A stretch of 64,000 bases of DNA from Dactylosporangium sp. CA-052675 (GCF_050947935.1 NZ_CP192010.1:3180935-3244934); one strand, 5' to 3'; counted from the first letter of the stretch, positions 8,389 through 37,352 are shown. Notes: a model not told the origin generated them from the letters alone. Program-made: numbers and translations.

Positions 8389-8403
8389 GAGGATGGCTCC
8401 CGA

Positions 8404-8417: not shown

Positions 8418-8491
8418 TTCCGGATTCGCCTTGAGACATCGACGCTATTGCCACACGAAAGGCGAGTCAACAAGCCTCCGTTATCGAAACA

Positions 8492-9702: not shown

Positions 9703-9706
<4 letters not shown>
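8492..9706 (-). CDS. sugar ABC transporter permease (xylose/ribose-type, 404 aa)
   Basis: ATG at 9706 overlaps the ATPase stop codon (ATGA). The protein is hydrophobic with at least 9 TM helices. Confidence 0.8.
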
Positions 9707-11244
<1,538 letters not shown>

Positions 11245-11307
11245 GGGGCCTCCCGCGACAGTGGGCCGGGCCCGCGGCTGCGGACCCGGCCCGGTACGGC
11301 TGATCGG

Positions 11308-12429
11308 TTACAACCCCAGGTCTGAGGCTTTGAAGAAGCCGGAGTCGACGAGCTTCGACTTCACGTCGTCCTTCGTGACCACGACCGGCGGGAGGAGGTA
11401 GGAGGGGACGACCTTGACGCCGTTGTTGTACGTCTTGGTGTCGTTCGTCTCCACCGCGGTGCCCTTGGAGATCGCGTCGACCATCTTCGCGACCTGGTCG
11501 CCGAGGGTGCGGGTGTCCTTCCAGACCGTCATCGACTGCTTGCCGGCCAGGATGTTCTTGGTGTTGGCGAGGTCGGCGTCCTGGCCGGTGAGGGTCGGCC
11601 AGTCCGCGCCGGGCTTGTAGCCGTGCGAGTCCAGCGACTGCGCGATGCCCAGCGCGAGCGAGTCGTTCGGGGACAGCACGACGTCGACCTTCTTGCCGCC
11701 GGTGTAGAACGAGTTCAGGCGGTTGTCCATCTCGGCCTGCGCGCCCTCGGTCTTCCAGCCGTTGATCGAGACCGTCTTCCAGTCGTCGTTGCTGGCCAGC
11801 TTCTTGCCCGACGGGATGACCAGCTTGCCGCTGTCCACGTACTGCTTGAGCACGTCCCAGGCGCCGGCGAAGAAGAACTTGGCGTTGTTGTCGTCCGAGG
11901 AACCGGCGAACGGCTCGAGGTTGAACGGGCCCTTGCCCTGGTCCAGGCCCAGCTTGGACACGATGAACTGGCCCTGCAGCTGGCCGACCTTGTAGTTGTC
12001 GAAGGTCGCGTAGTAGTCCACGTTCGGGCTGGAGTTGATCAGGCGGTCGTAGGCGATGACCTTGACCTTCTTGTCCGCCGCCTGCTGCAGCACCGGGGCC
12101 AGCGCCGTGCCGTCGATCGAGGCGATGACCAGGATCTTCGCCTTGTCGTTGATCATGTTCTGGAGCTGGGTGATCTGCTGGTCGACCTTGTTGTCGGCGT
12201 ACTGCAGCGAGGTCTTGTAGCCGGCCTTCTTGAGCAGGTCCTCGAGGTGGGCCCCGTCGTTGTTCCAGCGCTCCAGGCTGCGGGTCGGCATCGCGATGCC
12301 GACCAGCGCCGGGCCGCTGTCGCCGCCGCCCCCGGCGTTGTCGTCGGAGCGGGTCTTGCTGCACGCCGACGTCGTGGCGAGCAGGGCAGCTAGAGCGGTG
12401 GCGGCCAGGACGCGGAGAGTCTTACCCAT
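11308..12429 (-). CDS. sugar ABC transporter substrate-binding lipoprotein (ChvE/xylose-binding-like)
   Basis: ATG at 12429 is preceded by AAAGGAGG. There is a lipobox, LLATTSAC. The periplasmic-binding fold is type I. Confidence 0.8.
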   Translation of the reverse strand: MGKTLRVLAATALAALLATTSACSKTRSDDNAGGGGDSGPALVGIAMPTRSLERWNNDGAHLEDLLKKAGYKTSLQYADNKVDQQITQLQNMINDKAKILVIASIDGTALAPVLQQAADKKVKVIAYDRLINSSPNVDYYATFDNYKVGQLQGQFIVSKLGLDQGKGPFNLEPFAGSSDDNNAKFFFAGAWDVLKQYVDSGKLVIPSGKKLASNDDWKTVSINGWKTEGAQAEMDNRLNSFYTGGKKVDVVLSPNDSLALGIAQSLDSHGYKPGADWPTLTGQDADLANTKNILAGKQSMTVWKDTRTLGDQVAKMVDAISKGTAVETNDTKTYNNGVKVVPSYLLPPVVVTKDDVKSKLVDSGFFKASDLGL

Positions 12430-12574
12430 CCCTGACGCCTCCTTTCGAGTCGGGAGGAGGGGGTGTGCGCGCAGGGTGCGGGGGTTTGTTATGGCCGCGA
12501 ACATACCTCCCCGGACCGGTGATCAGAGGTCACAGATCGATAACACCATGGTCAACTCCGTTGCCCCGCAACAT

Positions 12575-12586
12575 GTTTCGAAACAC
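12575..12586. promoter_or_regulatory. 12-bp palindrome TGTTTCGAAACA between the MarR gene and the ABC operon
   Basis: Perfect dyad with the same core as 8404-8417. It lies in a locally AT-rich stretch. Confidence 0.4.
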
Positions 12587-12627
12587 AGTCCTTTAGCTCT
12601 AATCTAAATAGTGCTAATGTACTTCCC

Positions 12628-13062
12628 GTGAGCGTGGATCTTCGGCAGGTCTTCGACGACCTGGTGCGGTTCGAGACCGATCTCTGGAACGGCGTCGACG
12701 CGCGCCTGCGGCAGGCCGGGGCCGTGCCCCTCGGGAGCCTCAACGTGCTGCAGGTGGTGGCCCGGACCGCGGACTGCCGCGTGAACGACATCGCCGACGC
12801 GCTGTCGATCACCATCGGCGGCGCGAGCCAGGCGGTCGACCGTCTGGTGACACGCGAGCTGCTGGCCCGCCGGCCGAACCCGGCCGACCGGCGATCGTCC
12901 ATTGTGGAGCTGACCGGCTCCGGCTCGGCCGCCCTCGAGGCCGCCGAGGAGATCTTCGACGCGGCGCTCGCCGAGTGGTTCGGCGGCGCGCTGACGGGTA
13001 GCGCCCTGCGCGGCTTCGCCCGCTCACTGTCCACCCTGCGCACCTGGAGGAAGCATGTCTGA
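12628..13062 (+). CDS. MarR-family transcriptional regulator
   Basis: GTG start; the winged-helix segment is LNVLQVVARTADCRVNDIADALSITIGGASQAVDRLV. Confidence 0.7.
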   Translation: MSVDLRQVFDDLVRFETDLWNGVDARLRQAGAVPLGSLNVLQVVARTADCRVNDIADALSITIGGASQAVDRLVTRELLARRPNPADRRSSIVELTGSGSAALEAAEEIFDAALAEWFGGALTGSALRGFARSLSTLRTWRKHV

Positions 13063-13981
13063 GGCACGAGCCGTCCGATTCGACACCTTCGGCGGCCCCG
13101 AGGTGCTCTACGTGACCGGGATCCCGATGCCGTCACCCGGACCGGGTGAGGTGGTCGTCGCCGTGCGCGCGGCCGGCATCAACCCGGGCGAGAGCGGGAT
13201 TCGCAGCGGGGCGCTGGAGTTCAAGTACCCCACCCGTCTCCCCTGCGGCGAGGGGAGCGACCTGGCGGGCGTCGTGACCGCGGTCGGCCCGGGGGTGACC
13301 GGCTTCGCGCCCGGCGACGAGGTGCTGGGCTTCTCCTGGACCCGCTCCAGCCACGCCACCCACACCGCCGTGCCGGTCACCCAGCTCATCCCCAAGCCGG
13401 CCGCGCTGTCGTGGGAGGTGGCCGGCGCCCTCTACGTGGTGGCCTGCACCGCCTACGCGGCCGTGCGCGCCGTCGGCGCCCGGGAGGGCGAGACGATCGC
13501 CGTGTCGGCCGCGGCCGGCGGCGTCGGCACCGTGACCGTCCAGCTGCTGCGCCACCTCGGCGCGCGGGTCCTGGCCATCGCCTCACCGTCCAACGCGGAC
13601 TGGCTCGCGGCCCGCGGCGCCACCCCGGTCCCCTACGGCGACGGCCTCGCGGACCGGCTGCGCGCGGCGGCGCCCGAGGGCATCGACGCCTTCATCGACC
13701 TGTTCGGGCCGCAGTACGTCGACCTGGCGCTCGAGCTGGGCGTCCCGAAGGACCGCGTCAACACCGTCATCGCTTTCGAGGCCGCGGCGCGCCTGGGCGT
13801 GCGGGCGGAGGGCAGCGAGGACGCGTCGACCGCGGACGTGCTGACGTACATGGCCGGCCTGGTGGCCGACGGCACCCTGGAGATCCCGATCGCCGGCACG
13901 TACGCGCTCGACGACGTGGCGAAGGCCTTCGAGGAGCTGGACCGCCGCCACACCCGCGGCAAGATAGTCCTGCTGCCGTGA
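13055..13981 (+). CDS. NADPH:quinone oxidoreductase / zinc-independent MDR-family dehydrogenase
   Basis: The Rossmann motif AAAGGVG is present and the protein has the MDR fold. The start overlaps the MarR stop by 8 nt. Confidence 0.75.
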   Translation: MSEARAVRFDTFGGPEVLYVTGIPMPSPGPGEVVVAVRAAGINPGESGIRSGALEFKYPTRLPCGEGSDLAGVVTAVGPGVTGFAPGDEVLGFSWTRSSHATHTAVPVTQLIPKPAALSWEVAGALYVVACTAYAAVRAVGAREGETIAVSAAAGGVGTVTVQLLRHLGARVLAIASPSNADWLAARGATPVPYGDGLADRLRAAAPEGIDAFIDLFGPQYVDLALELGVPKDRVNTVIAFEAAARLGVRAEGSEDASTADVLTYMAGLVADGTLEIPIAGTYALDDVAKAFEELDRRHTRGKIVLLP

Positions 13982-14017
13982 TCTCGGTGCTGACCCTGCC
14001 GATCGAGCGCTGCCGCG

Positions 14018-14268
14018 TGATGGCACACCTCGACGGCGACATCGTGGCGCCGGGCGACGGCGGCATCGACGTGTTCGAGACGCTGCTGCCGGTGAGCCGC
14101 TTCCTCGCGGGGCTGGCGCGATCATCGCAGTTTCCGCGTTCCAACTGCCGGTGCACGGATTGCCGCAATCCGCTCTCCACCACCGGGAGGGGGGTCGCTG
14201 CCGGCGCCCAGGTCGAAGCCGATGAGCGGATGCCGTTCGCCGTCCATCCGCATACGATCCACCGGTGA
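14018..14268 (+). CDS. hypothetical small protein (83 aa). Its stop overlaps the GTG start of the SUKH gene (GTGA).
   Basis: In-frame ATG at 14018; the call rests on the coupling geometry alone. Confidence 0.25.
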
Positions 14269-14780
14269 CTGTCGAGCATCGGGTGCTGCCGATCGCGCTG
14301 GAAAAGGCTCACAAGCTTGGATTTTTCGAGGATCACGATGGGCACGACTTCCAGCCGGATGCCGAGTTCGAGTGGTCGGTCGAAACCACCGAATGGTGGC
14401 GCGCGTGGACAGGTGATTCCGCTGTAGAAAGTGCGCCGCTGCGCGTCTTCGGAGTCGACGGCAGCGGTGGAAAGGCAGCCTTCTGGACCCGCTTGCCAGA
14501 CGCAGCCATCGAGACGCAACCCATCGTGTTCCTCGGTTCTGAGGGCGAGACTCGGGTCATCGCCCGCGACCTGGGCGACTACCTCTGGCTGCTGGCAAAC
14601 GGCGTCGGGCCATTGGAATCGGTCGACGGAATCCACCGCACTGCAGAGCCGCTGCCAGCGCTCGTGGCGCTCGCGCAGCAGTACACCGGCATCGCAACCC
14701 GCAGTCTTGAGGCGGTGATGGCAGCCGCCGGTTCCGAGCTCGCGGCCTTGACGGCCCTCATCGAATCGACCACGAGGTGA
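14265..14780 (+). CDS. SMI1/KNR4 (SUKH-superfamily) protein, a putative toxin-immunity-type protein
   Basis: W/G-rich motifs are present: EWWRAWTG, FGVDGSGG, IVFLGSEGETRVIARDLGDYLWLLANG. The gene is visibly AT-richer than its flanks. Confidence 0.5.
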   Translation: MTVEHRVLPIALEKAHKLGFFEDHDGHDFQPDAEFEWSVETTEWWRAWTGDSAVESAPLRVFGVDGSGGKAAFWTRLPDAAIETQPIVFLGSEGETRVIARDLGDYLWLLANGVGPLESVDGIHRTAEPLPALVALAQQYTGIATRSLEAVMAAAGSELAALTALIESTTR

Positions 14781-14922
14781 GCGAGCACCACTCGCGCGAC
14801 TGCATGGTCACAGCTGGGCCGGCGTCCGGATGTCCGCCGCGATCCGCGCGCTGCAGACCGTGACGGCCCAGCTGGCGGTTCCGCGCGGGATCTGCCGAAT
14901 TGCGTGCGCCTCTGAGATCCGG

Positions 14923-15384
14923 ATGTATACGTTGGCGTCCATGGGGACCGCGCCGTGGAAGGTTCGGCAGTACTGTTACTTCTGGCTGGCCAGCGAGGCG
15001 GTCACTGCTGGGCGGATCACGGAGCTTCTCGGGTTGGAACCGGATCGAATCGCCGTCATGGGAAGTCGGCGGACGTCGCCCCGGGTGGTCCCTGCCGCCC
15101 ATCGGTGGGAGATCAGCTGCCGGACGCACGGACGGATCGATGAACAAGTGTCCACCGTTCTCGCTCGCATCGCGCCCGCCGCCGACCGGGTGCGAGCCCT
15201 CGTCGATGGTGGCGATGTCGATGCGGGCCTCATGATGGTCCGCTGGTTCGACGATCCCGACGGCGGGTACGGCGCGATGGGCTGGTGGCTGACTCGCGAA
15301 CAGATCCAACTCCTCGCACGGATGGGCGCAACCGTCGAATCAGACGAATACGCAGGAGACTTCACGGCGCATTCGCCCCGGTGA
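14923..15384 (+). CDS. DUF4279-family protein
   Basis: The pattern RQYCYFWLASEAVTAGRITELLGLEPDRIAVMGSRRTSP...LMMVRWFDD...VESDEY matches this family as I recall it. The start could also be 14941. Confidence 0.5.
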   Translation: MYTLASMGTAPWKVRQYCYFWLASEAVTAGRITELLGLEPDRIAVMGSRRTSPRVVPAAHRWEISCRTHGRIDEQVSTVLARIAPAADRVRALVDGGDVDAGLMMVRWFDDPDGGYGAMGWWLTREQIQLLARMGATVESDEYAGDFTAHSPR

Positions 15385-15501
15385 CGCACTGATCTGCCGC
15401 GATTCGCTCACTACGCAACGTCATGACTTGAGGATCGTCCGGCTCACTGACATGCCGATGAGCGCGCACCCGACCACCCGCCGACCGTAGCAACCGACTG
15501 A

Positions 15502-16413
15502 TCAGGAGCAGTCGAATCGGTAGTCGAACGGCCGGTCAGGACAGCTCAAGCAGACGAACAAGTACATGCCGCCGACGTCGCCGAGCATCAAACCGGCCGG
15601 GTTCTGGATACGTCGCCATGGATGATGATCAGGGGCATCGAAGCCCCATCCGTCCATCGCCGGGCGGTCCTGCAGGGGGATCCAACGCTTCTCGTCGCCC
15701 CGACTGAACTCCCAGCTGGCCACCGTGATGAGATGCTCCATGGGCACGCCGCAGCCGCATGCCGGCCAGTCCGGCACCTGGGTCCAACCAGGATAGCCGC
15801 CCACCTTCGTACCGGAGGCGACCGCCAAGTCAGTCTCGTACTGCCAGCCGGTCTCCCGCTCGATCCGCGCGACGCTGTCCCTGATTTGCGACCAGACAAC
15901 CTCGGGCAGATCGCGGCTCGGGTACTCGGTGACGCGTTCCGGGTCCAAGACGCACGGGTCGGGCACGTACCGGGCGTCCGCCTCCTCGTCGGGCTCGGGC
16001 AACTCCTGCAGCCTGGCGCCGATATCAGCGCGGCGGCGCCACCTCAGTGCAGGTCGAGGCGAACTCCACGGTTGGTGATCGAACGGGCACCACAGCACCT
16101 GCAGCATGTCCGTGCCGGCGGGGAACGGAAGCTCGGGAAGGTCTTCAGCAAACAACTGCAACACCGGGACGAGCGGCACCTCGGCCTCGGATGGCTGGCG
16201 GTCGAGGTGGTCGTACGGTTCCGGCCCATCGCATATCGGCCAAGGTTCCTTCACCGGCCACAGCAGCGGACCCCCCATCGAACTCTGCTCGGCGGTCGGT
16301 GCTCCAAGCCTGGGATGCAGCCTTACGGTTGTCATGGCGAAAGGCACGACCTGCGGAAAGACTTCAGGTATGTCGATCGGGCTGGAAGCGGTGGTGCGCA
16401 CGGCGATGATCAT
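15502..16413 (-). CDS. DUF1963 (YwqG-like) family protein
   Basis: The motifs GGYPGWTQ...CGCG...MEHL and GDVGGMYLFVCLSC match this family. The start is either the ATG at 16413 (AGGGA upstream) or the ATG at 16335. Confidence 0.5.
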   Translation of the reverse strand: MIIAVRTTASSPIDIPEVFPQVVPFAMTTVRLHPRLGAPTAEQSSMGGPLLWPVKEPWPICDGPEPYDHLDRQPSEAEVPLVPVLQLFAEDLPELPFPAGTDMLQVLWCPFDHQPWSSPRPALRWRRRADIGARLQELPEPDEEADARYVPDPCVLDPERVTEYPSRDLPEVVWSQIRDSVARIERETGWQYETDLAVASGTKVGGYPGWTQVPDWPACGCGVPMEHLITVASWEFSRGDEKRWIPLQDRPAMDGWGFDAPDHHPWRRIQNPAGLMLGDVGGMYLFVCLSCPDRPFDYRFDCS

Positions 16414-25621: not shown

Positions 25622-26119
25622 ATGCTCATCCGGCCATGGCAGACGGGCGACGAGCACCTCGTGGCGGCCGCCGAGCGGCACCTGTCCGCGCGCAGCATCG
25701 ACCGGCGCTTCTGCGTCGGCAGTGGCGGGCGGCTGCCCACGTTCTACCTGCGTCATCTGGAGGGCGGCCCGCGGCCGGAGTGGGACGCGCAGGTCGCGGT
25801 GGACGACGGCGGGCGGCTGTGCGGGTGGGCCGAGTACGGCCGCCGCCCCGCCTGTTCGCCCGCCGCCGACCTGGCCGTGCTGGTCGCCGACCCGTGGCAG
25901 CGCACCGGCCTGGCCACCGCGCTCGTGCGCGCCCTGGTGCCGCGCATGGCCGCGGCCGGCGTGCGCACCGTCCAGGCCGACGTGACCGGCGCCAACGCGG
26001 CCAGCAAGGGCCTGATCCGCGCCCTTGCCGGCCCCGGCCTGCGCCCGACCTACCAGGACGGGATGGTCCACTACGCCTTCGATCTGGCGGTCGTACCGTT
26101 CGCGCCGCTGACCGTCTGA
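25622..26119 (+). CDS. GNAT-family N-acetyltransferase
   Basis: The acetyl-CoA motif is WQRTGLATALVRAL. Confidence 0.6.
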   Translation: MLIRPWQTGDEHLVAAAERHLSARSIDRRFCVGSGGRLPTFYLRHLEGGPRPEWDAQVAVDDGGRLCGWAEYGRRPACSPAADLAVLVADPWQRTGLATALVRALVPRMAAAGVRTVQADVTGANAASKGLIRALAGPGLRPTYQDGMVHYAFDLAVVPFAPLTV

Positions 26120-29100
26120 CCCGCCGCCGCCGCCCGCTCGATCGCCGCCCCGACATCGCCGACCCGGTCCGCGAGCAGCCCGACCGCGCCGACGGCCCGG
26201 CTCATCGGGTCGTCCTCGGCCCCGCCGAGCGCCTGCGCCCGGCGATGGGCCGCCTTGACCTCCGCCCACCGCGCCGCCTGCTCGGGGGTGAGGCGGCCGC
26301 GCAGCTCGGCCAGCTTGAGCAGGTTCGCCTCGGCGCCGGTGGTGAGCGTCTGGGCCTCGCCGGCGTAGTGGTCGTCGATGACCGCCTCCAGCTCGGCGTC
26401 GTTCATGACCGGCACGACCCGCTCGGCGAGCTTGTTCATGTTGCGGTACGAGCCTTGCAGCAGGAACGGCGGCTCGGTGCGCGACGCGTCGGCCTGGGCC
26501 GCGGAGGCGATGTACGCGCGGTTGGCCGCCAGCACCACCTCCTGCACCCGCAGCAGCTTGCGCAGCACGGCGAGCATCCGGTCCACCTCGACCGCCGAGT
26601 ACGGGTGGGCGAGCTGGTCCGGCCGCACGGTGCCGTCGCCGCGGGCCAGCCGCACCAGCAGCTCGACGTCGCCGCGGTCCCGCGCCGACAGCGGGGCGAG
26701 GACGGTGTTGGAGGTCAGGGCGTTCTCGATGTAGCTCAGCGCGAACACCTCGTCCCGGCCGGTCAGCACGTCGCCGAGGTTCCACACGTCGGCGCGGTTG
26801 GCCAGCATGTCGGGGATCCGGAAGCGCTGCCCCGACTCGGTGTACGGGTTGCCGGCCATGCACACGGCGAACCGCTTGCCCCGCAGGTCGTACGTGCGCG
26901 TCCGGCCGTTCCAGACGCCCTCCATGCGCCGCTGGGCGTCGCACAGGGAGATGAACTTCTGCAGCAGCTCCGGCGAGGTGTGCTGGATGTCGTCGAGGTA
27001 CAGCAGGACGTTGTTGCCCATCTCCAGCGCGAAGTTGACCTTCTCGATCTCCAGCCGGGCGGTCGCGTTCGGCGCCTGCGCCGGGTCCAGCGACGTCACG
27101 TGGTGCCCGAGCGCCGGCCCGTTCACCTTGACGAACGCGAGCCCGAGGCGGCTGGCCACGTACTCCATCAGCGTCGTCTTGCCGTAGCCGGGCGGCGAGA
27201 TGAGCAGCAGCAGACCCATCTGGTCGGCCCGCTTCGCCTCGCCCGCCGCGCCCAGCTGCCGCGCCAGGTTGTCGCCGATCAGCGGCAGGTACACCTCGTC
27301 GAGCAGCCGGTTGCGCACGAACGCGCTCATCACCTTCGGCCGGCAGTCCTCCAGCCGCAGCCGCTCCCGCTCGCGCGCGGCCAGCTCGTTGCGGCGGCGC
27401 TGGTAGGCCCGGAAGGCCGGCACGCGTTCGAGCCGGAACCGCCGGGTGCGGGCGAGCACCTCGTCCAGCCGCAGCCGCATGCGGCGGCCCTCGATGCGTG
27501 GATGGGTGCCGAGCAGCCCCTCCACGGTCGCGGTGAGCTCGGCCGCCGACTCGCGCCGCGGCAGCCCGGAACCGCAGAGCACGACGGCGGCGGCCTCCTG
27601 GAGGTCCGGGCTGTCCGCAGCGAACGAGGTGAGCCACGCCGACACGAGCTGGCGGCGGGCGGCCAGATCGCCCTCGAGGGCCCGCAGGTCCGCCGCGAGC
27701 TCGTCGGACGGCACGGCCCGCCGGAAGCGGTCCAGCAACGCCCGCGCGCCCGCGCCGGTGACGAACCCGAAATCCGGCAGGGCCAACTCCTCGAACAGGT
27801 ATGCGGCGGCCGACGAGGACGAGCCCATGGCCGACTGCAGCTCCGCGCACAGCTCGCCGATCGCGTCCGAGGGCCCGAACGCCGCCCGGGCCCGGGCCAG
27901 CGACCGCGCCCGCCGGGTCCAGGCCGCTTTCGCCTCGTCGCCGGCCCCGAAAGCCCAGAACAGCTGCGCCTCGGCGCGATCCGCCCCCGGATGGCGCAGG
28001 AGCCCGGCACCGGCGTCCAGCCGCCGCAGGACCTCGAGGATCAGCGCCGCGTCGTGGTCGTGCACACCGCGCTCGTAGCCCTCGTCGTAGCGCTCGTCAG
28101 CCAGGCGCCGCACGGCCTGCAGGGATCCGCCTTCGGGCGCGACCTCCAGGGCCAGGGCGGCCAGGTGCTCGGCGCGGTACACCTCGGGCGACTCGGAGGC
28201 GACGAGCTGCCCCCAGAACGGGCGCGCCGCGGCGATCTGCGGGTCGTCCACCGGTGCGCGGTAGTCGGTCGCGGTCACGGTGAACGCCAGCCCGTCGCCG
28301 TGCGGCACGAGCGTGAGGTCGATCGGCTGGGTGTTGACGGCGAACCGGTGGCGGCCGAGGCGGATGAGGTCGGCCGAGCCGTCGAAGAGGTCGGTCCGGT
28401 CCCGCAGCAGCCGGCCGGCCTCCAGCCGGGCCCGCTGGACCCGCCCGTCCAGCTCCTCGGCGCGGACCTGGTCGCCCAACTCGCGCAGCTCGCCGGCCAG
28501 GCGGCGGACCCGCGCGACCATCGGGTCGGTCGTGAAGTACGTGTTGACCTCGTCGGCCGACGTCATGGCGGCGACCCGGCGCCCGACGCCGGCGAGGATC
28601 CGCTCGGCGGACTCGGCGAGCCGGTCGGCGCGGCGGGCCCGCTCGTCCAGCAGCGCCTGCCGGCGGGCCGAGAATGCCTCGTAGACGTCGGTGCGCCGGT
28701 CCGCGAGCCGGGCCAGGAAGTCCTCGGACTCGCCGAAGCGGGACTCCAGGTTCTCCAGCTGCAGCATGAGCCGGCCGAGCTGCTCGTCGCAGCGCTCGGG
28801 GGTGCCGGCGGCCGCGAGCGCGCCGGTGACCGCCTGCCCGAGCAGCGCGAACTCGGCCGCGAACTCGGCCCGCCCCTCGACGGCGAGCAGCTCGCGGCGG
28901 CGGGCGTCGAGGGTGGCCCGGGCCCGGTTGACGCCGCCGAGCACCTCGCCGATGCGGGCCAGGATGCCGACCCGGACGGTGGCGTCGGCGATCTCGAGGG
29001 AGCCGACCACCTCCGTGACGATCTGCAGCGCCTCCGCCTGCGCGGCCAGCCGCTCGCCGACCGGTCCCGCGTCGGCCACGGTCCGGATCGCCTCGGCGTC

Positions 29101-30966
29101 GGCGACCAGGCGCTCGACGTCGGTGTGGTAGGCGGCGAAGGCGTCCTCGTGCCGCAGGAACCGCACCGCCCGCTGGGCCGCCGCCGTGAGCTCCGCGCCG
29201 AGCCGGGCCCGCAGCGCGGCGACCCGCTCGGTGTCGACGTAGCGCAGCTCGGCCAGCGGCACCAGCGAGCCCTGGGCGCGGCGCAGGTCGGCCAGGCGCC
29301 GTACCCAGGCGTCGGTGTCGGCGGGCGTCTCGCCCTGGGAGCGGCGGATCAGCGACTCGATCCGCTCGCCCTGCGCGCCGAGGGCGGCGGCCGCCTCCTC
29401 GGTGAGCGCCTGCACCCGCTCGAACTCGCCGAGCACCTGCTCGGCGGTGTCGCGCAGCTCGGTGAGCGGGTGGCGCAGGTCGCCGAGGTCGGCCTCGCCG
29501 AGCCAGTGGTAGTGGTCGAAGGCGCGCCGGCACGCGGCGACGATCGCCTCGAAGACCGCCGCGGACGGGGCCATCTCGGCGACCATCCGGGCCACCGACA
29601 GGGCGTCGGAGATGCCGCGGACGAGGTCGGCGTTGCCCACCCGGTCCAGCGGCCCGGTCCCGAGCGGCTGGGCGGCGGCGTACGTGTCCGACTGGTACGG
29701 CGTCTGCCAGACCTGCATGGTGTGGACCCGGGCCGGCTCCTCGGACCCGGCCCGGAAGACCACGAGGGTTCCGTCGTCGAACAGCGAGTAGCCGTGGCAC
29801 ACGATCGGGTTCTCGACCGCCTTGCGGATGACGTTGTACGGCAGCAGCAGCGACCGGCCGTCGGCCCGCGCGTGGAAGACGTAGAGCACGTCCTCGCCGT
29901 TGACGGACCGGATCACGCGCTCGAACTCGAGCTCGGCCACGTCGGTGTCGAAGGTGCGGGCGACGCCGGTGGCCAGGTAGTACCCGCCGGGGAAGATCAG
30001 GCCCTGGTCCTCCGGCAGGCGCTGGCAGCCCTGGCCGATCCCGTCGAGCCGCACGACCGCCCGGGTCCTCGTGTTGAAGACCAGAAAGCGATAGGCGTCC
30101 TCCTTGTACGGCCTGATGCGCAGCAGCACCAGGGCGCCGACGCGCGCGTAGCTCACGTCGGCGTCGGCGAGGCTCTGCAGCGGCTCGTCGACCGGCTCCC
30201 GGTAGATGCCCTCGCCGGTCTCGGTGTTGTTCTCCACCTTGACGGTCAGGTCGCCGCCGACGGTCTCGACGAACACCACGTCCTCGATGGAGATGTGAGG
30301 GTGCCGGCCCAGGACGTGCCGCTCGCGGCCGACCGGCGTCCACTCGAAGTCGTGCGACGGCGGGAACACGTGGTCGCGCTCGCCCCGGTTGTCCACATAG
30401 GACACCGTGCCGTCCGCGCCGACGGTCCAGCGCAGCACCTTGATGTCGTCGGTGCGCGGCCCGGTCTGGAAGACGGCGAGGAGCTTGCCGTCGAGGCGGC
30501 GCAGCTGCAGCAGCCGGGTGTCGCGGTAGTACTTGTAGACCTCGCCGAAGTCGCGCAGCAGCCGCGGGTCGCGCAGCAGCGCGGCGTCGTCGTCGCCGGA
30601 CGGCCGGTCGAACCGGAACGCGTCGCCGTCGCGGGCGAAGCGGTGGACCGAGAACACGTCGTCGACCGTCGTCTCCGGCTTGAGGCCGATGAAGACGTTG
30701 TAGCCGAACAGCATCAGGCCGCCGACGGACACGATGTCGCGCGGGACGCAGTTGTGCTCGGTGCGGATGCGCTCGGTGCCCAGCAGCCGCAGCTGGGCGC
30801 CCCCGAACACCTCGGTCCGCCGCGCGTTGAGGGCCTCGGCCCGGCGCGTCAGCTCGGCCGCCTGGGCGGCGAGCCGGTCGCGCAGCACCTCGTAGGTGCC
30901 GGCGTCCAGGCCCGCCGCCGGGCCCGCCTCGGTCGTGTCGCTCACCGCCGCGGTCGCTTCCGTCAC
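26071..30966 (-). CDS. 1,631-aa protein with a C-terminal AAA+ (AAA_5/MoxR/dynein-like) ATPase module; function unknown
   Basis: The 4.9-kb ORF is uninterrupted. The GTG start at 30966 overlaps the flotillin stop. Walker A is ISPPGYGKTT, Walker B is VLLYLDD, and sensor-1 is AVCMAGNPY. Confidence 0.6.
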   Translation of the reverse strand: MTEATAAVSDTTEAGPAAGLDAGTYEVLRDRLAAQAAELTRRAEALNARRTEVFGGAQLRLLGTERIRTEHNCVPRDIVSVGGLMLFGYNVFIGLKPETTVDDVFSVHRFARDGDAFRFDRPSGDDDAALLRDPRLLRDFGEVYKYYRDTRLLQLRRLDGKLLAVFQTGPRTDDIKVLRWTVGADGTVSYVDNRGERDHVFPPSHDFEWTPVGRERHVLGRHPHISIEDVVFVETVGGDLTVKVENNTETGEGIYREPVDEPLQSLADADVSYARVGALVLLRIRPYKEDAYRFLVFNTRTRAVVRLDGIGQGCQRLPEDQGLIFPGGYYLATGVARTFDTDVAELEFERVIRSVNGEDVLYVFHARADGRSLLLPYNVIRKAVENPIVCHGYSLFDDGTLVVFRAGSEEPARVHTMQVWQTPYQSDTYAAAQPLGTGPLDRVGNADLVRGISDALSVARMVAEMAPSAAVFEAIVAACRRAFDHYHWLGEADLGDLRHPLTELRDTAEQVLGEFERVQALTEEAAAALGAQGERIESLIRRSQGETPADTDAWVRRLADLRRAQGSLVPLAELRYVDTERVAALRARLGAELTAAAQRAVRFLRHEDAFAAYHTDVERLVADAEAIRTVADAGPVGERLAAQAEALQIVTEVVGSLEIADATVRVGILARIGEVLGGVNRARATLDARRRELLAVEGRAEFAAEFALLGQAVTGALAAAGTPERCDEQLGRLMLQLENLESRFGESEDFLARLADRRTDVYEAFSARRQALLDERARRADRLAESAERILAGVGRRVAAMTSADEVNTYFTTDPMVARVRRLAGELRELGDQVRAEELDGRVQRARLEAGRLLRDRTDLFDGSADLIRLGRHRFAVNTQPIDLTLVPHGDGLAFTVTATDYRAPVDDPQIAAARPFWGQLVASESPEVYRAEHLAALALEVAPEGGSLQAVRRLADERYDEGYERGVHDHDAALILEVLRRLDAGAGLLRHPGADRAEAQLFWAFGAGDEAKAAWTRRARSLARARAAFGPSDAIGELCAELQSAMGSSSSAAAYLFEELALPDFGFVTGAGARALLDRFRRAVPSDELAADLRALEGDLAARRQLVSAWLTSFAADSPDLQEAAAVVLCGSGLPRRESAAELTATVEGLLGTHPRIEGRRMRLRLDEVLARTRRFRLERVPAFRAYQRRRNELAARERERLRLEDCRPKVMSAFVRNRLLDEVYLPLIGDNLARQLGAAGEAKRADQMGLLLLISPPGYGKTTLMEYVASRLGLAFVKVNGPALGHHVTSLDPAQAPNATARLEIEKVNFALEMGNNVLLYLDDIQHTSPELLQKFISLCDAQRRMEGVWNGRTRTYDLRGKRFAVCMAGNPYTESGQRFRIPDMLANRADVWNLGDVLTGRDEVFALSYIENALTSNTVLAPLSARDRGDVELLVRLARGDGTVRPDQLAHPYSAVEVDRMLAVLRKLLRVQEVVLAANRAYIASAAQADASRTEPPFLLQGSYRNMNKLAERVVPVMNDAELEAVIDDHYAGEAQTLTTGAEANLLKLAELRGRLTPEQAARWAEVKAAHRRAQALGGAEDDPMSRAVGAVGLLADRVGDVGAAIERAAAAGQTVSGANGTTARSKA

Positions 30967-33038
30967 CGCTGGGCCGCCGCCAGCGCCGCGACCGGCTTGT
31001 CGGCGATGCCGAGCCGGTGGGCCGTGTCGAGCAGGTCGCGCAGCTTGTCCCCGTCGGCGCCGCCGCGCTGGATCTGCTGGGCCAGGAACGCCGACAGCGT
31101 CAGGTTGGACACGTCGGCGGTGCTCATCGAGCCGAGCACCCGCCCGAGGTCGCCGACCAGGTCGCCCCGGCCGTCGAGGTAGGCGGCGCCGACGCTCTGC
31201 ACGACGTCGGAGTGCTGCACGAGCCCGTCGATGCTCTTGCCGAGCGTGATCGAGCCGAGCAGCTTGTCGAAGAACACGCCGTCGCCGCCGACGATGTCGA
31301 TGTTCGCCTTCTCCAGGCCCGCGGCCAGCACGTGCGCCTGCTGCTCGGCGACCTGCCGGTGCACGTCGATGCCGGCGAGGCGGACCTCCTTCTCCATCTC
31401 CAGGCGCAGGCGGTACTCCTCGTGCCCGCGGGTCGCGGAGTCCATCGCGGCGAGCGCGGCGGCCTTCTCGGTGAGCCCCTCGGCCTCGCCCTTGAGCTTG
31501 TCGCGCAGCGCGTCGGCGAGCGCGGACGCCTTCTCCCGCTCGACCGCGGCCTCGGCCAGGCCGGCCTTCTCGATCGTCTCGGCGCTCGCGACCGCCTTCT
31601 CGCGCTCGACCGCGGCCTCCGCCCGGCCGACCTTCTCGATCGCCTCGGCGTTGCGCTCGCGCACCTGCACGTCGGCCAGACCGGCCGCGGCCGCCTCGGC
31701 CTGCACGCCCTCGGCGAGCCGGATCTTGGCCCGGGCCTCCAGCTCCGCGGTCTGCTGGCGGGCCTCGGCCAGCACCAGCTCCTCGCGGGCCCTGAACTTC
31801 GCCGCCTGCTCCGCGGCCTCGGCCGCCTTGATCCCCTTGACCAGGTTCTCCTGCGCCTCCGCCTCGGCCGCGATGATGACCGCCTGGCGGGTGCGCTCGG
31901 CCTCCTCGACCACGCGGAGCCGCTTGATGTGCTCCTCCTGTTCGGCGACGGTCCGCTCGACCGCGATGCGCTCCCGGACGACCTCGGCGATGGCCCGCTT
32001 CTCGGCCTCGACCTCCTTGTCCTTGGCGATCGTGCTCAGCTCGGTCTCCCGCTGCCGGGCGATGACCTCGAGCATGCGGTCCTTCTCGATGCGCTCCGAC
32101 TCGATCGCGATGACCCGCTCGCGGTTCTTCTCGGCCACGGCGATCTCGCGCGACTTGTTCTCGTGCTGGATGCCGACCTGCTCGTCGGTGCGGATCTCGG
32201 CGGTCTGCGACTTGAGCCGCTCCTCGGCGCGCACCCGGGCGGTCTCGGCCTCCTCCCGCGCCCGCAGGATCGCGACCTCGCGCTGCTGCTTGATCTCCGC
32301 CTCGGCCTGCCGGCGCTCCAGCTCCAGGATCGCCTCGCGGGCGTCGACGTCCTGGCGCTTGATCTCCTTCTCCTCGGTGCGCCGGTACTCGTTCGTGCGC
32401 ACGTGCTCGATCGCGGTCAGCTCGGTGATCTTCCGGATGCCCTGGGCGTCGAGGATGTTGGCGTTGTCGAGGCTGTGCAGCGGCGTCTGCTCGAGGAAGT
32501 CGATCGCGGCGTCCTCGAGGCTGTAGCCGTTGAGGTCGGTGCCGATGACCCGGACGATCTGGTCGCGGAACTCGTCGCGCTTGGTGTAGAGGTCGACGAA
32601 GTCCAGCTGCTTGCCGACGGTCTTGAGCGCCTCGGAGAACTTGGCGTTGAACAGCTCCTGCAGGGTCTCCTGGTCGCTGGCGCGCACGGTGCCGATCGCC
32701 TGGGCGACCTTGATGACGTCCTCGACGGTCTTGTTGACCCGCACGAAGAACGAGATGCGGATGTCGGCCCGGATGTTGTCGCGGCAGATCAGCCCCTCCC
32801 GGCCGGTCCGCTCGATCTCGATCGTCTTGACCGAGATGTCCATGACCTCGGCCTTGTGCAGGACCGGCAGCACGACCGCGCCGGTGAACGTGACGTCGAC
32901 CTTGCTGACCTTGGAGATGATCAGCGCCTTGCCCTGCTCGATCTTGCGGAACAGCCGGCTGATGGCGATGAGCACGCCGATCGCGGCGAGCACGACCACG
33001 CCGAGCACGACGAGGAAGCCGGTGGTGAGAACGGTCAT
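30963..33038 (-). CDS. flotillin-family protein (SPFH/band-7 domain with long EA-rich coiled coil, FloT/YqiK-like)
   Basis: An N-terminal TM helix is followed by an SPFH domain and then about 350 aa of EAEKRA-type heptads. Confidence 0.8.
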   Translation of the reverse strand: MTVLTTGFLVVLGVVVLAAIGVLIAISRLFRKIEQGKALIISKVSKVDVTFTGAVVLPVLHKAEVMDISVKTIEIERTGREGLICRDNIRADIRISFFVRVNKTVEDVIKVAQAIGTVRASDQETLQELFNAKFSEALKTVGKQLDFVDLYTKRDEFRDQIVRVIGTDLNGYSLEDAAIDFLEQTPLHSLDNANILDAQGIRKITELTAIEHVRTNEYRRTEEKEIKRQDVDAREAILELERRQAEAEIKQQREVAILRAREEAETARVRAEERLKSQTAEIRTDEQVGIQHENKSREIAVAEKNRERVIAIESERIEKDRMLEVIARQRETELSTIAKDKEVEAEKRAIAEVVRERIAVERTVAEQEEHIKRLRVVEEAERTRQAVIIAAEAEAQENLVKGIKAAEAAEQAAKFRAREELVLAEARQQTAELEARAKIRLAEGVQAEAAAAGLADVQVRERNAEAIEKVGRAEAAVEREKAVASAETIEKAGLAEAAVEREKASALADALRDKLKGEAEGLTEKAAALAAMDSATRGHEEYRLRLEMEKEVRLAGIDVHRQVAEQQAHVLAAGLEKANIDIVGGDGVFFDKLLGSITLGKSIDGLVQHSDVVQSVGAAYLDGRGDLVGDLGRVLGSMSTADVSNLTLSAFLAQQIQRGGADGDKLRDLLDTAHRLGIADKPVAALAAAQR

Positions 33039-33078: not shown

Positions 33079-33654
33079 TCAGTTCGGGGTGGATCCGTCC
33101 GGGGTGGATCCGTTCGGGGCGGGGACGACCCAGAAGAACTCGCCGTCCCGGTCGTATTCGTAGATCACCGCGGGGCTGCCCGCGGCAAAGCTGTCGGCGC
33201 CGGTCTGGCGGACCTGGACGATCGCGCTGGAGCCGTCGTCGGCGGTGACCTCGGCCTGACCGAACGACTCGGTCACGGTCCCGGTGCGAATCACGCACGA
33301 CCGCCCGACGAACGCGGTGCGGGAGTCGCCGCCCGTCGCCGGGGTGAGCCGCCGCAGCGGGATCGCGGCCAGCCGCGCCGCGAGCCACCCGGCCGCCAGC
33401 GCGACCAGCAGCACGGCCACGCGCGGCAGGGCGCCGCGGACGACGGCCGAGCCGGCCAGGCTGACGAACCAGGCGACCGGCACGAGCACCGAGAGCCCGA
33501 CCGCGATCGGCGCCCCGAGCAGCCCGGCCCCGGCGTCGAGCAGGTCGGTGTCGGCGCCCCCGAGGAGCACGACGAGCCAGTACGCGATGACGACGGCGAG
33601 CAGGACGGTGAACAGGACGGTCGGGAAGCCGAGGATCGCGTCGAGAAACTCCAT
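33079..33654 (-). CDS. NfeD-like membrane protein (YqiJ/YuaF-type, C-terminal OB-fold)
   Basis: There are three TM helices and a beta-rich C-terminus. It lies 41 bp upstream of the flotillin gene. Confidence 0.6.
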   Translation of the reverse strand: MEFLDAILGFPTVLFTVLLAVVIAYWLVVLLGGADTDLLDAGAGLLGAPIAVGLSVLVPVAWFVSLAGSAVVRGALPRVAVLLVALAAGWLAARLAAIPLRRLTPATGGDSRTAFVGRSCVIRTGTVTESFGQAEVTADDGSSAIVQVRQTGADSFAAGSPAVIYEYDRDGEFFWVVPAPNGSTPDGSTPN

Positions 33655-33836: not shown

Positions 33837-33989
33837 TTATCGACATCTGGACGGAAGTCCCCTAGCGTGTCGTGGCATATCGACGGTCGTCGGTTCCGCC
33901 AGTGCCGACGAACGCCCCGATGACCCGTGCCCGTCTTCGGCGAGCGCGCGCGGGAGTCCGTGACCGGCTCCTACCCCTTGGAGCGTTCC

Positions 33990-36900
33990 GTGAAGCGATG
34001 GACGACCCTCTTCGCCGTGCTGCTCGCGGGCGTCGGCCTGCTGCCGGCGATCCCCGCCGCGGCCGCGGTGCCACCGCAAGAGCCCGGCGTCACCCTGCGG
34101 GTCTTCGACCTGCAGACCCCGCAGAGCTCCATCTGCGTGCTCAAGTCCGGGCAGACGCCCAACGTCGACAAGCTCATGCCGACCGTCAACTGGACCAGCG
34201 CCGCCGACTTCGGCGGGCTGGAGGACTACTTCCAGGCCCAGGTCATCGGCAACGTCAGCATCCCCAGCGCCGGCACCTACGCGTTCCGGCTCACCAGCGA
34301 CGACGGCTCCCGCCTCGCCATCGACGGCGCCAACGTCATCAGCAACGACGGCCTGCACGGCGCGACCGCGGTCGAGGGCAGCGTCGCCCTCACGGCCGGC
34401 TACCACGCGCTGCGCATCGACTTCTTCGAGCGCACCGGCGGCCAGCAGTTGACCCTCGAGTGGCGCCCGCCGGGCTCGAGCGCCTACGCGCTGGTGCCGA
34501 ACTCGGTGCTGAGCACCGATGCCGGGGTCGTGCGCGTCACCGCCCCCGGGCGCAAGGAGTGCGAGGGATCCGCCGACTCGCCCGGCGACGGGCTGCCGCT
34601 GACGTCGCTGCACCCGGGGTACACCCTGACGAACCTGCGCCCGAACGGCTTCAACCCGCAGGTCAGCGCGATGGACTGGTTCCCCGACGGGCGTCTGGCC
34701 ATCGCGACCTGGGGCGGGAGCCTCAACACCACGGGCGAGGTCTACATCCTGCGCAACGTGACGGGCGCGACCTCGCCGTCGCAGGTGCAGTACACCCGGA
34801 TCGCCTCCGGACTGAAGGAGCCCATGGGACTCAAGATCGTCGACGGCGTCATCTACGTGTCGCAGAAGCACGAGCTGACCGAGCTCACCGACACCGACGG
34901 CGACGGGCAGATCGACCGCTACCGCACGGTCGCGACCTGGCCGTTCGACGGCAACTTCCACGAGTTCGGGTTCGGGCTGCTGTACCAGGACGGGTACTTC
35001 TACCTGAACCTGTCCGTCTCCATCAACCAGGGCGGCGCGACCACCGACCCGCAGGGCTCGCCGAACCGGGGCACCAGCCTGAAGATCAACCGCTCGACCG
35101 GCGCCGTGCAGTACGTCGCCGGCGGCCTGCGCACCCCCGACGGCATCGGCTGGGGACCGGCCGGGGAGCTGTTCGTGACCGACAACCAGGGCGGCTGGCT
35201 GCCGGCGTCGAAGCTGGTGCAGATCAAGCAGGACCGCTTCTTCGGCCACTACACCAACCCCGACGGCCCGTTCGACGGCCAGCCGGTCACCCAGCCCGTG
35301 CTGTGGCTGCCGCAGAACGAGATCGCCAACTCGCCGAGCACCCCGCTGGTGCTCCACAATGGACCGTACGCCGGGCAGCTGGCGTTCGGCGACGTGACGT
35401 ACGGCGGCATCCAGCGCGCCTCGCTGGAGCAGGTGAACGGCGAGTACCAGGGCGCGGTCTTCCGCATGACGCAGGGGCTCGAGATGGGCGTGCTGCGCAT
35501 CAGCGAGGGCCCCGACGGCGCGATCTACGCGGGCGGCCTCGGCGCCGGGGGCAACTGGGGCCAGGAGGGCAAGCTCACCTACGGCCTGCAGAAGATCACC
35601 CCGAACGGCACGAACGTCTTCGACTTCAAGGCGATGCGCGTCAAGCCCGGCGGCTTCGAGCTGGAGTACACCCAGCCGGTGTCGACCGAGACGGCGGCGC
35701 AGCTGGCCTCGCGCTACACGTTCAAGCAGTGGCGGTACGTCCCCACGCCGGCCTACGGCGGCCCCAAGGTCGACGAGGAGTCGCTCCAGGTCACCTCGGC
35801 GACGCTCTCGGCCGACCGGCTGAAGGTCACCGTCCAGGTCGCGGGCCTCAAGCCGGGCCGGGTCGTCCACGTGCGCTCGCCCCGGCCGTTCACCTCGACC
35901 ACGGGCCAGTCGCTGTGGAGCACCGAGGCCTGGTACACCCTCAACGCCCTCGCCGACGGCACGCTCCCGCCGACCGGCCAGCAGGAGGCCGAGTACTCGG
36001 GCCTGAGCGGCAGCGCGGGCGTCGCGACCGACCACAGTGGATACACCGGCACCGGCTTCGTGGCCGGGTTCGGCAACGCGGGCGCCGCGGCCACGTTCAG
36101 CGTCGCCGCGCCCAGCGCCGGCGCATACACCGTGGCGCTGCGGTTCAGCAACGGGCCCAACCCCTCCGCGGGGACGAAGACCGTCAGCCTGTACCTCAAC
36201 GGCGCCAAGGTGAAGCAGCTGTCCCTCGCGGACACGGGCAACTGGGACACCTGGGCGACGGCCACCGAGACGCTCCAGCTGCGCGCGGGCGGCAACGCGA
36301 TCGCCTACCGCGTGGACAGCGGCGACATCGGCCACGTCAACCTCGACAACATCACCGTCGCGCCGGCCGGCGGCGGGGGAGCGGCGGACCACACCGGCAC
36401 CATCACCGGCATCGGCGGCAAGTGCGTCGACGTCAGCAACGCCGGCACCGCCAACGGCACGAAGATCCAGCTGTGGACCTGCAACGGCTCAACCGCGCAG
36501 AGCTGGACCCGCACCGGCGACACGCTGCGCGCGCTGGGCAAGTGCCTGGACGTCGACAACGGGGGCACCGCGAACGGGACCAAGGTGCAGCTGTACGACT
36601 GCAACGGCTCGGCCGCCCAGGTGTGGCAGGCCGGGGCGAACGGCACCCTGCGCAACCCGCAGTCCGGCAGGGTGCTCGACGCGGCCGGGGGCGCCTCCGC
36701 CGACGGCACCCAGCTGCAGATCTGGGACGCGGCCGGGGTCGCGCAGCAGAGCTGGGTCCACAATGGAGCCTCGCGGGTGACCCTGTTCGACGGCGGCAGC
36801 CTCAACGCGTTCGCCAACGCCGACGGCACCGCCCCGACCTGGCCCGTCTCCGGCGGCTCGGCGGAGGTGCTGGGCGGGGACATCCGCACGAAGCAGGCGT

Positions 36901-37352
36901 ACGGCGACTTCAAGCTCCACGTCGAGTTCTGGCTGCCGAACCTCCCGGCCGACGTCACCGGCCAGGCCCGCGCGAACTCCGGCATCTACCTGCAGGACCG
37001 CTACGAGGTCCAGGTGCTCGACACCTACGGCAAGACCTCGCTGGCGAACAACGACTGCGGCGCCATCTACCTCAAGCGGGCGCCCGACAGCAATCCGGCA
37101 ACGGCGCCGGAGACCTGGCAGACGTACGACGTGACGTTCCGCGCGGCCCGCTGGAACGGCACCACGAAGACCGAGAACGCCCGGGTCACCCTCGTGTGGA
37201 ACGGCGTCACGGTGCACAACAACGTGGCCGTCGACGGGCCGACGGGCGCGGGTGCCGCCGAGAGCCCGGCGGCGCTGCCGATCCGCCTGCAGGACCATGG
37301 CGATCCCGGCGCGAACGTGCGCTACCGCAACATCTGGATCGAGCCCGTGTGA
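33990..37352 (+). CDS. secreted multidomain carbohydrate-active protein: PA14, SGL/PQQ-type sugar-dehydrogenase beta-propeller, CBM6/35-like, ricin-B (CBM13) lectin, DUF1080 (3-keto-disaccharide hydrolase-like)
   Basis: GTG at 33990 with GGAG. There is a signal peptide. Ricin-B QxW-type repeats are present (QLWTC, QLYDC, QIWD). The DUF1080 tail has the pattern GDFKLHVEFW...NSGIYLQDRYEVQVLD...NDCGAIY. Confidence 0.7.
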   Translation: MKRWTTLFAVLLAGVGLLPAIPAAAAVPPQEPGVTLRVFDLQTPQSSICVLKSGQTPNVDKLMPTVNWTSAADFGGLEDYFQAQVIGNVSIPSAGTYAFRLTSDDGSRLAIDGANVISNDGLHGATAVEGSVALTAGYHALRIDFFERTGGQQLTLEWRPPGSSAYALVPNSVLSTDAGVVRVTAPGRKECEGSADSPGDGLPLTSLHPGYTLTNLRPNGFNPQVSAMDWFPDGRLAIATWGGSLNTTGEVYILRNVTGATSPSQVQYTRIASGLKEPMGLKIVDGVIYVSQKHELTELTDTDGDGQIDRYRTVATWPFDGNFHEFGFGLLYQDGYFYLNLSVSINQGGATTDPQGSPNRGTSLKINRSTGAVQYVAGGLRTPDGIGWGPAGELFVTDNQGGWLPASKLVQIKQDRFFGHYTNPDGPFDGQPVTQPVLWLPQNEIANSPSTPLVLHNGPYAGQLAFGDVTYGGIQRASLEQVNGEYQGAVFRMTQGLEMGVLRISEGPDGAIYAGGLGAGGNWGQEGKLTYGLQKITPNGTNVFDFKAMRVKPGGFELEYTQPVSTETAAQLASRYTFKQWRYVPTPAYGGPKVDEESLQVTSATLSADRLKVTVQVAGLKPGRVVHVRSPRPFTSTTGQSLWSTEAWYTLNALADGTLPPTGQQEAEYSGLSGSAGVATDHSGYTGTGFVAGFGNAGAAATFSVAAPSAGAYTVALRFSNGPNPSAGTKTVSLYLNGAKVKQLSLADTGNWDTWATATETLQLRAGGNAIAYRVDSGDIGHVNLDNITVAPAGGGGAADHTGTITGIGGKCVDVSNAGTANGTKIQLWTCNGSTAQSWTRTGDTLRALGKCLDVDNGGTANGTKVQLYDCNGSAAQVWQAGANGTLRNPQSGRVLDAAGGASADGTQLQIWDAAGVAQQSWVHNGASRVTLFDGGSLNAFANADGTAPTWPVSGGSAEVLGGDIRTKQAYGDFKLHVEFWLPNLPADVTGQARANSGIYLQDRYEVQVLDTYGKTSLANNDCGAIYLKRAPDSNPATAPETWQTYDVTFRAARWNGTTKTENARVTLVWNGVTVHNNVAVDGPTGAGAAESPAALPIRLQDHGDPGANVRYRNIWIEPV

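Follow-up and report, generated by a model that had tools for sequence, protein, structure and literature searches.

The question raised by this locus is what a giant ATPase does that carries the name of a DNA repair enzyme and is encoded directly behind a flotillin. The locus lies in a window of 64,000 nucleotides (nt; the whole stretch of DNA that was analysed) from Dactylosporangium sp. CA-052675 (GCF_050947935.1 NZ_CP192010.1:3180935-3244934), in which the gene at 26071-30966 on the minus strand encodes a soluble DUF3686-DUF7902-AAA+ ATPase of 1,631 amino acids (aa) with a GTG start. It is the last of three co-directional genes, encoding a small membrane protein, a flotillin and the ATPase. 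It is very probable that the ATPase works with this flotillin/YqiJ module at the membrane, and not in DNA repair, while the specific mechanism (i.e. that the ATPase acts as a remodeller of the scaffold) is put forward tentatively, with a confidence that falls somewhat short of even. As a compromise between the two, the best explanation overall, which is favoured modestly, is that the protein serves a three-gene membrane module as its soluble ATPase subunit and remodels flotillin/PspA assemblies. This explanation draws on the rigid linkage to flotillin, the recurrent linkage to PspA elsewhere, the intact catalytic motifs, an AAA+ fold that resembles that of ring formers, and a published operon of the same kind (PMC11237479).

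The stop codon of the flotillin gene and the start codon of the ATPase gene share 4 nt (GTGA), and the ATPase is translationally coupled to the flotillin. The second gene of the cassette (30963-33038, minus strand, as are all features mentioned below unless indicated otherwise; GC content at third codon positions, GC3, 0.99) encodes a YqiK/FloT-type flotillin of 691 aa, whose parts are a membrane segment at the N-terminus, an SPFH/Band-7 domain, a long helical region rich in Glu and Ala, and a domain at the C-terminus. The window copy itself has no Pfam match, and its identification as a flotillin follows from three comparisons taken together: Pfam Band_7 was matched by 6 of 19 orthologs (best E=1e-9), NCBIfam FloT matched residues 52-307 of the protein (E=1.5e-4), and alignment of its profile with that of Escherichia coli YqiK using hhalign gave a probability of 99.7% (E=3e-25, 293 columns). 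The first gene (33079-33654, GC3 0.96) encodes a small membrane protein of 191 aa, likewise with no Pfam match for the window copy, which has three hydrophobic segments and a beta-rich soluble C-terminal domain, and whose size, position and topology fit the YqiJ/YuaF type. Neither the flotillin profile nor that of the small protein had a match among PDB sequences.

The linkage between these genes is rigid. A genome scan matched at least 597 species genomes, and in the neighbourhoods of the best 80 loci (all from actinomycetes) the flotillin gene was found directly upstream of the ATPase gene in 78, the other two ending at a contig boundary, while the small protein was detected directly upstream of the flotillin in 73. 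Upon clustering of the flanking open reading frames (ORFs), only the three cassette genes turned out to be conserved, any other gene family being common to at most 18 of the 80 loci. A second homolog search, for which a 27%-identical member served as query, reached Bacteroidota, Gammaproteobacteria and Planctomycetota, and the triad recurred in each of the seven distant, full-length loci that were inspected (Bacteroidota, Gammaproteobacteria, Deinococcota and metagenomic contigs), i.e. those of Flavobacterium litorale (L081), Agaribacterium (L082), a metagenomic contig (L083), Sphingobacterium deserti (L084), a metagenome-assembled genome (L085), the Pseudomonas plasmid pQBR103 (L088) and Deinococcus actinosclerus (L089). 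Orthology of the partners was tested by profile search in three of these (L081-L083), with E-values of 5e-225, 7e-213 and 3e-92 for the flotillin, and of 6e-31 (Agaribacterium), 9e-20 (Flavobacterium) and 6e-7 (the metagenomic contig) for the small protein. The original prediction, made from the DNA sequence by itself, had proposed a scaffold-bound ATPase, and it is this combination of translational coupling to the flotillin and a pairing conserved across phyla that supports such a role.

In five of the seven distant loci PspA is encoded within the cluster as well, usually together with CesT/Tir or DUF2170, and some of the PspA-bearing clusters add genes for DUF350, DUF4178, spermine synthase or glutathionylspermidine synthase. 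In the metagenomic contig (L083), TelA is found in the place of PspA. Among the seven, a full cluster is carried by pQBR103, a 425-kb megaplasmid of Pseudomonas fluorescens SBW25, where positions 85112-97641 of the record encode PspA, a rhomboid, DUF2491, DUF350, DUF1190, glutathionylspermidine synthase, the small protein, the SPFH protein and the giant ATPase; this well-studied plasmid would make a convenient experimental system. In F. litorale an extra P-loop protein of 586 aa is encoded between the flotillin and the ATPase (L081, 5228-6988), with a weak match to SMC_N that remains below threshold (E=2.9e-6), and neither the window nor the other loci have an equivalent of it.

Both the operon and the architecture of the ATPase were already published in 2024, and the window protein is an ordinary ortholog. 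In the operons described by Ravi, Anantharaman, Aravind, Gennaro et al. (mSystems 2024, PMC11237479), the CesT/Tir-PspA dyad is joined by three further genes, for a Band-7/flotillin protein, a YqiJ/YuaF protein with three transmembrane segments, and an ATPase composed of a beta-propeller, a coiled coil and an AAA+ module, with Dokdonia donghaensis (beside PspA ANH61663.1) as the example. The authors suggest a part in ATP-dependent membrane dynamics and in chaperone-like assembly; Pfam identifiers, structures and experiments are not included in the paper. The window cassette appears to agree with these in its three proteins, in their order and in the architecture of the ATPase. It differs from the full published form in that the CesT/Tir-PspA dyad is missing, and thereby matches the 'abbreviated' form that is also mentioned there. 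The loci of Flavobacterium and Sphingobacterium reproduce the published layout (an opposite-strand helix-turn-helix gene, CesT/Tir, PspA, the protein with three transmembrane segments, flotillin and ATPase), and their ATPases are homologous to the window protein over its whole length. In terms of Pfam domains (DUF3686, DUF7902 and AAA), the window protein is identical in architecture to the proteins known to have this combination.

The ATPase ORF is a genuine gene, since its GC content by codon position (0.77/0.48/0.98) is what true genes show in a genome of such high GC content (~73% in the window). A longer ORF on the plus strand (25636-31182, 1,848 aa) spans the whole ATPase gene and was rejected as a high-GC shadow ORF, its GC content by codon position being 0.96/0.52/0.76. 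A comparable antisense ORF (~150 aa) is found inside the flotillin gene in 45 of the 80 related loci. No transmembrane segment was predicted in the ATPase, for which the highest mean Kyte-Doolittle hydropathy over 19 residues was 1.57, and the protein is therefore taken to be cytoplasmic. It has more than 6,230 homologs, the closest being 97% identical (Dactylosporangium sp. CA-139114), with ~72% identity to Streptomyces homologs and, among the actinomycete genera sampled, 70-75% along 1,600 residues. In a representative library, 1,385 cluster representatives matched at E<=1e-3, and the full-length members (1,600-1,900 aa) align in one stretch over residues 20-1195. The cassette is not a mobile or phage-associated element: the ATPase family was matched by 0 of 50,697 phage records and by 13 of 72,556 plasmid records, which for the most part are megaplasmids, chromids or records as large as a chromosome. 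There are also members of ~1,040 aa (P0310 and P0311) that have DUF3686 and DUF7902 and from which the AAA+ module is missing; at the P0310 locus (L086, 8001-11123), the neighbours are Por-secretion-tail proteins, an integrase and an RHS/Tc toxin gene, and the flotillin and small-protein genes are not adjacent.

The AAA+ module is the only one in the protein, its sole P-loop being located at residues 1253-1377, in agreement with the single C-terminal unit that had been predicted. The alpha/beta core (residues ~1205-1400, 26767-27354) was delimited from Pfam matches and AlphaFold2, the model itself placing it at ~1250-1400, and no other part of the family is as well conserved (mean column conservation 0.65-0.78). 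Two Pfam models matched it, both just over threshold, and the prediction that the module is AAA_5-like was thereby upheld only marginally: AAA_5 is a marginal match (25.4 bits versus a cutoff of 22), while the classical AAA model (PF00004) scores higher (27.5 bits, cutoff 21.2). None of the NCBIfam models reached its cutoff on the ATPase. The Walker A, Walker B and sensor-1 motifs, which had been placed within nt 26,800-27,300, were indeed located there (nt 26842-27195, residues 1258-1375): Walker A is PPGYGKTT at residues 1258-1265 (27172-27195, with K1263), Walker B is LLYLDD at residues 1321-1326 (26989-27006, with D1325 and D1326), and the sensor-1 strand is CMAGNPY at residues 1369-1375 (26842-26862, with N1373). 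We take the sequence LDDIQH around Walker B to resemble the Walker B box of DnaA. In an alignment of 74 full-length family members, diverging to 27% identity, GYGKT[TS] was found in 73 and [AGS]GNP in 72 (AGNP itself being at least 95% conserved), and hhYhDD in most, with Asp-Glu never seen in place of Asp-Asp among the members matching the pattern. In the window protein these three signatures lie at 1260, 1371 and 1321, respectively.

Further downstream, R1391 (26794-26796) in the invariant NRAD motif is a candidate arginine finger on account of its position relative to sensor-1, and the surrounding NRADVWNL is conserved enough to work as a pattern for genome scans. In the lid region, all five residues of QGSYR (1504-1508, 26443-26457) are at least 95% conserved, including the candidate sensor-2 arginine R1508; this motif is presumably comparable to the sensor-2 motif (GxSxR) of AAA+ proteins of the MoxR and sigma54 types. 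The conservation of K1263, D1325/D1326, N1373, R1391 and R1508 (each at least 95%), despite divergence to 27% identity, argues for an active ATPase, and judging from these residues the protein is probably active. AlphaFold2 was run on alignments of 40 homologs, separately for residues 1-1200 (mean pLDDT, i.e. the confidence of the model, 74) and 1150-1631 (mean pLDDT 76). The C-terminal lid and tail (residues 1401-1631, 26074-26766) were modelled as helices up to residue ~1620, with a pLDDT of 75-95 at residues 1400-1570 and lower values at the extreme C-terminus, which corresponds to the helical tail of ~230 aa in the original prediction. Just ahead of the sensor-1 strand, the model (and only the model) has a beta-hairpin at residues 1347-1360 (model numbering 198-211), while the secondary structure between beta2 and alpha2 (residues 1283-1300), i.e. 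at the position of a helix-2 insert, is ambiguous in it. Foldseek comparison of the AAA+ model with the PDB returned RuvB (1.9e-6), NorQ (5.8e-6) and CbbQ (4e-5), as well as MCM, ClpX and ClpB-NBD2, so that the best structural matches of the model belong to the pre-sensor-1-hairpin group of AAA+ proteins, which form rings. Searches of PDB sequences with the protein and with the family profile matched only the Walker A segment of Rix7, VCP, RuvB and Rpt3, and are uninformative on function.

The ~1,200 aa upstream of the AAA+ module, which the original prediction regarded as being without assignable motifs, can in fact be assigned in part, as DUF3686 (PF12458) covers residues 38-487 (29506-30855; Pfam E=1.2e-221, 736.4 bits versus a cutoff of 25, profile positions 1-448 of 448) and DUF7902 (PF25472) covers residues 608-692 (28891-29145; E=5.9e-30, 103.7 bits versus a cutoff of 26, profile positions 1-85 of 85). 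DUF3686 consists of a helix at its N-terminus followed by a beta-rich domain, modelled as a helix at residues 22-54 and beta strands at 60-421, which come in groups of four with a pLDDT of 50-80 (residues 308-389 were not modelled with confidence); the beta-rich character that had been predicted for the N-terminal ~430 aa is thus borne out. From the strand pattern of this mediocre model together with the published description, DUF3686 is probably propeller-like. Foldseek comparison of residues 1-1200 with the PDB gave nothing at E<0.01, and the weak matches (the propellers of GH43, prolyl oligopeptidase and the clathrin terminal domain, at E>=0.05, and dynein heavy chains) were not used as evidence.

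DUF3686 is followed by a helical stalk (residues 440-858, 28393-29649), which includes DUF7902 and has helices of 48-58 residues (pLDDT 80-92), by a small insert of beta strands in the AlphaFold2 model (residues 867-905, 28252-28368) with the conserved motif LGxHRFxVN, of which G871 and F875 are at least 95% conserved among the 74 members, and by a second helical domain (residues 931-1131), from which a long connecting helix (~1167-1202) leads to the AAA+ core. The middle of the protein had been described as Ala/Arg/Leu-rich, helical and possibly coiled-coil; the composition of residues 431-1180 (A 18.5%, R 12.8%, L 12.7%) and the model agree with the first two, but in the model the helices look more like stacked antiparallel bundles than like a coiled coil. 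The second helical domain contains the sequence RYxEGYxKGVHDxDA (residues 959-973), and within it the motif GVHDxDA (967-973, 28048-28068), in which G967, H969, D970 and D972 are conserved at 95% or more, down to 27% overall identity; judging by this conservation, the region could be a binding or catalytic site. The idea of an HD-phosphohydrolase was considered for this motif and found to be unsupported, as a Pfam search of residues 860-1165 gives nothing in six diverse family members.

Taken together, we infer that the ATPase oligomerises and acts mechanochemically, and by extension ring assembly, physical binding to the flotillin, the nature of the substrate and a role in stress, along the following lines. 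The C-terminal AAA+ domains would assemble into a ring, probably a hexamer, from which the 1,200-residue arm of each protomer would project outward, its propeller-like beta head carried by a stalk made of antiparallel helical bundles. On the cytoplasmic side of the membrane, the arms would touch the flotillin assembly, and ATP hydrolysis would drive the assembly, turnover or disassembly of the flotillin scaffold. In the PspA-linked lineages, the same action would be exerted on PspA/ESCRT-III-like scaffolds under envelope stress or during membrane repair. The role of the ATPase would resemble that of Vps4 on ESCRT-III. A more specific version, which we regard as rather doubtful, is that the protein is a dedicated ATP-driven machine for the assembly or disassembly of flotillin (SPFH) cages, in which RYxEGYxKGVHDxDA would engage the flotillin or the YqiJ-like protein.

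Several observations weigh against the proposed role. Homologs of PspA, CesT and TelA are absent from the 64-kb window (tblastn), so that any link to PspA would here have to act in trans. The similarity of the small protein to E. coli YqiJ is marginal by sequence (hhalign E=1.2e-3, probability 20%), and Pfam YqiJ_N remained below threshold in three of the five distant small-protein orthologs. The propeller assignment is weak in view of the low pLDDT, the lack of a significant fold match and the lack of detectable repeats, no blade repeats being found in DUF3686 by self-comparison of its profile with hhalign. Walker B ends in Asp-Asp instead of the usual Asp-Glu, which may mean slow or regulated hydrolysis, as in a switch rather than a motor. 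In addition, no experimental characterisation of any member of the family was found in the literature.

In a first alternative, the protein is mainly a structural, spectrin-like scaffold beneath the membrane and the AAA+ module is a nucleotide-regulated switch for oligomerisation and not a motor; this mainly structural role is considered improbable. Much the same likelihood is given to a maturation chaperone of the MoxR (AAA_5) type, which would insert a cofactor or activate a specific client in the manner of NorQ/NorD, CbbQ/CbbO or RavA/ViaA, with the flotillin as a docking platform only. The AAA_5 match over its cutoff, the presence of NorQ and CbbQ among the best structural matches, and the label 'MoxR-like ATPase' given by JGI to some of the homologs all point in this direction. 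In addition, the stretch from sensor-1 to the arginine finger, NPYTESGQRFRIPDMLANRA, is taken to resemble the MoxR pattern NPxExxG...LPxAxxDR. However, a partner with VWA/MIDAS was not found in the neighbourhood within the window, at a conserved position in the 80 loci or in the seven distant loci, the Walker A half of the module aligns best with classical AAA proteins (Rix7, VCP and Rpt subunits), Walker B is Asp-Asp and not Asp-Glu, and MoxR proteins have nothing that corresponds to the N-terminal arm of 1,200 residues. The comparison with the wider MoxR/AAA_5 group (NorQ, CbbQ and RavA) and with midasin/dynein leads to the same balance, in which the marginal AAA_5 match and the structural likeness to NorQ and CbbQ are set against the missing VWA partner, a single AAA module, the Asp-Asp of Walker B and the giant N-terminal extension.

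A part in anti-phage defence or another kind of conflict system, in which the ATPase would be the motor or sensor and the flotillin and the small protein the membrane effectors, is highly improbable. Defence systems often include giant NTPases that have a propeller and helical arms, one copy of the cassette resides on the megaplasmid pQBR103, the downstream neighbours in Agaribacterium include AbiJ_NTD4, a deaminase and an FRG-domain gene, and PADLOC gave weak matches (E=0.002-0.03) to IetA and mad8 over Walker A and to ZorF elsewhere in the AAA+ domain. Yet the best of these matches in PADLOC-DB v2 (IetA, E=0.0018) extends over just 29 residues around Walker A, and the flotillin has none; the phage and plasmid counts given above likewise speak against it; the 70-75% identity across actinomycete genera argues for stable purifying selection and not for rapid turnover; the flanks in the window are without defence genes, and the recurrent partner, PspA, is an envelope-stress protein. 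Least probable of all, to the point of being very nearly discounted, is DNA repair by an SMC-, Rad50- or RecN-like ATPase whose long helical region would bridge DNA. In its favour are the NCBI product name 'DNA repair ATPase' on nearly all of the named homologs and the description of Pfam DUF3686 ('ATPase involved in DNA repair'), the weak matches to RuvB over the Walker A region together with RuvB as the top Foldseek match, and the sub-threshold SMC_N match of the additional neighbour in F. litorale. The product name appears to echo the description of the DUF3686 model, and no experimental source for it was found in the literature; that such proteins tend to be annotated automatically in this way had been anticipated in the original prediction, which also doubted that this is a DNA repair enzyme. 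The single C-terminal AAA+ module is not the split ABC-type head that flanks a coiled coil, the protein has no match to SMC_N, ABC, nuclease, helicase or DNA-binding models, the likeness to RuvB is confined to the generic AAA+ core (where NorQ, CbbQ, MCM and ClpX score about equally), and the invariant neighbours are membrane proteins, joined by PspA in other phyla. A canonical family covering the whole length, such as SMC or dynamin, had been named in advance as the finding that would count against a scaffold-bound ATPase, and the domain search found none; for dynamin and GTPases there was no profile match on the ATPase, whose N-terminus is the beta-rich DUF3686.

For the favoured role, i.e. 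remodelling of flotillin/PspA assemblies by a soluble ATPase, two known systems offer an analogy. FtsH-HflK/C, an AAA+ protease in an SPFH cage, likewise pairs an SPFH scaffold with an AAA+ ATPase (an analogy based on PMC13220708 and general knowledge), but FtsH is anchored in the membrane, is a member of the classical AAA clade and has a protease domain, whereas the window ATPase is soluble, has no protease domain and carries the 1,200-residue arm, and there is no homology between the two beyond the AAA+ fold. In Vps4/ESCRT-III and among the PspA-associated AAA+ proteins of bacteria, an AAA+ protein is likewise coupled to membrane-remodelling polymers, and PspA, a member of the ESCRT-III superfamily, is the protein linked to the ATPase in most of the distant loci. 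The window ATPase differs from Vps4 in that it has no MIT domain, in its modelled pre-sensor-1 hairpin, which Vps4 lacks, and in that its obligate partner is the flotillin and not PspA.

If the dedicated machine for flotillin cages were to exist, it would be the first SPFH-specific AAA+ remodeller known in any organism, and it would mean that the flotillin scaffolds of bacteria undergo active cycling, much as ESCRT-III does through Vps4, instead of being passive raft markers. That a flotillin is locked to a giant conserved ATPase across at least four phyla gives a concrete handle on the role of flotillins in bacteria, as the ATPase would be a partner that consumes energy and is open to mutation (K1263A, D1326N) and purification. 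Meanwhile, thousands of entries have come to bear the name 'DNA repair ATPase', for which no evidence was found.

Of the genes around the cassette, a GNAT acetyltransferase of 165 aa (25622-26119, plus strand) converges on the ATPase gene, the 3' ends overlapping by 49 nt. In Bacillus subtilis, yuaF-floT is followed by a GNAT gene (yuaI). A GNAT gene as fourth component of the cassette was nevertheless rejected, as it was found in none of the 80 related loci, and the resemblance is coincidental. Divergent from the cassette lies a gene (33927-37352, plus strand) for a protein of 1,141 aa with PA14, CBM35/CBM6, ricin-type lectin and 3-keto-disaccharide hydrolase domains, probably an enzyme that is secreted and acts on glycans, without relation to the cassette. 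There are no tRNA genes anywhere in the window. The GC content at 8001-16000 is 0.66-0.68, compared to 0.70-0.76 elsewhere in the window, and this segment may have been acquired horizontally.

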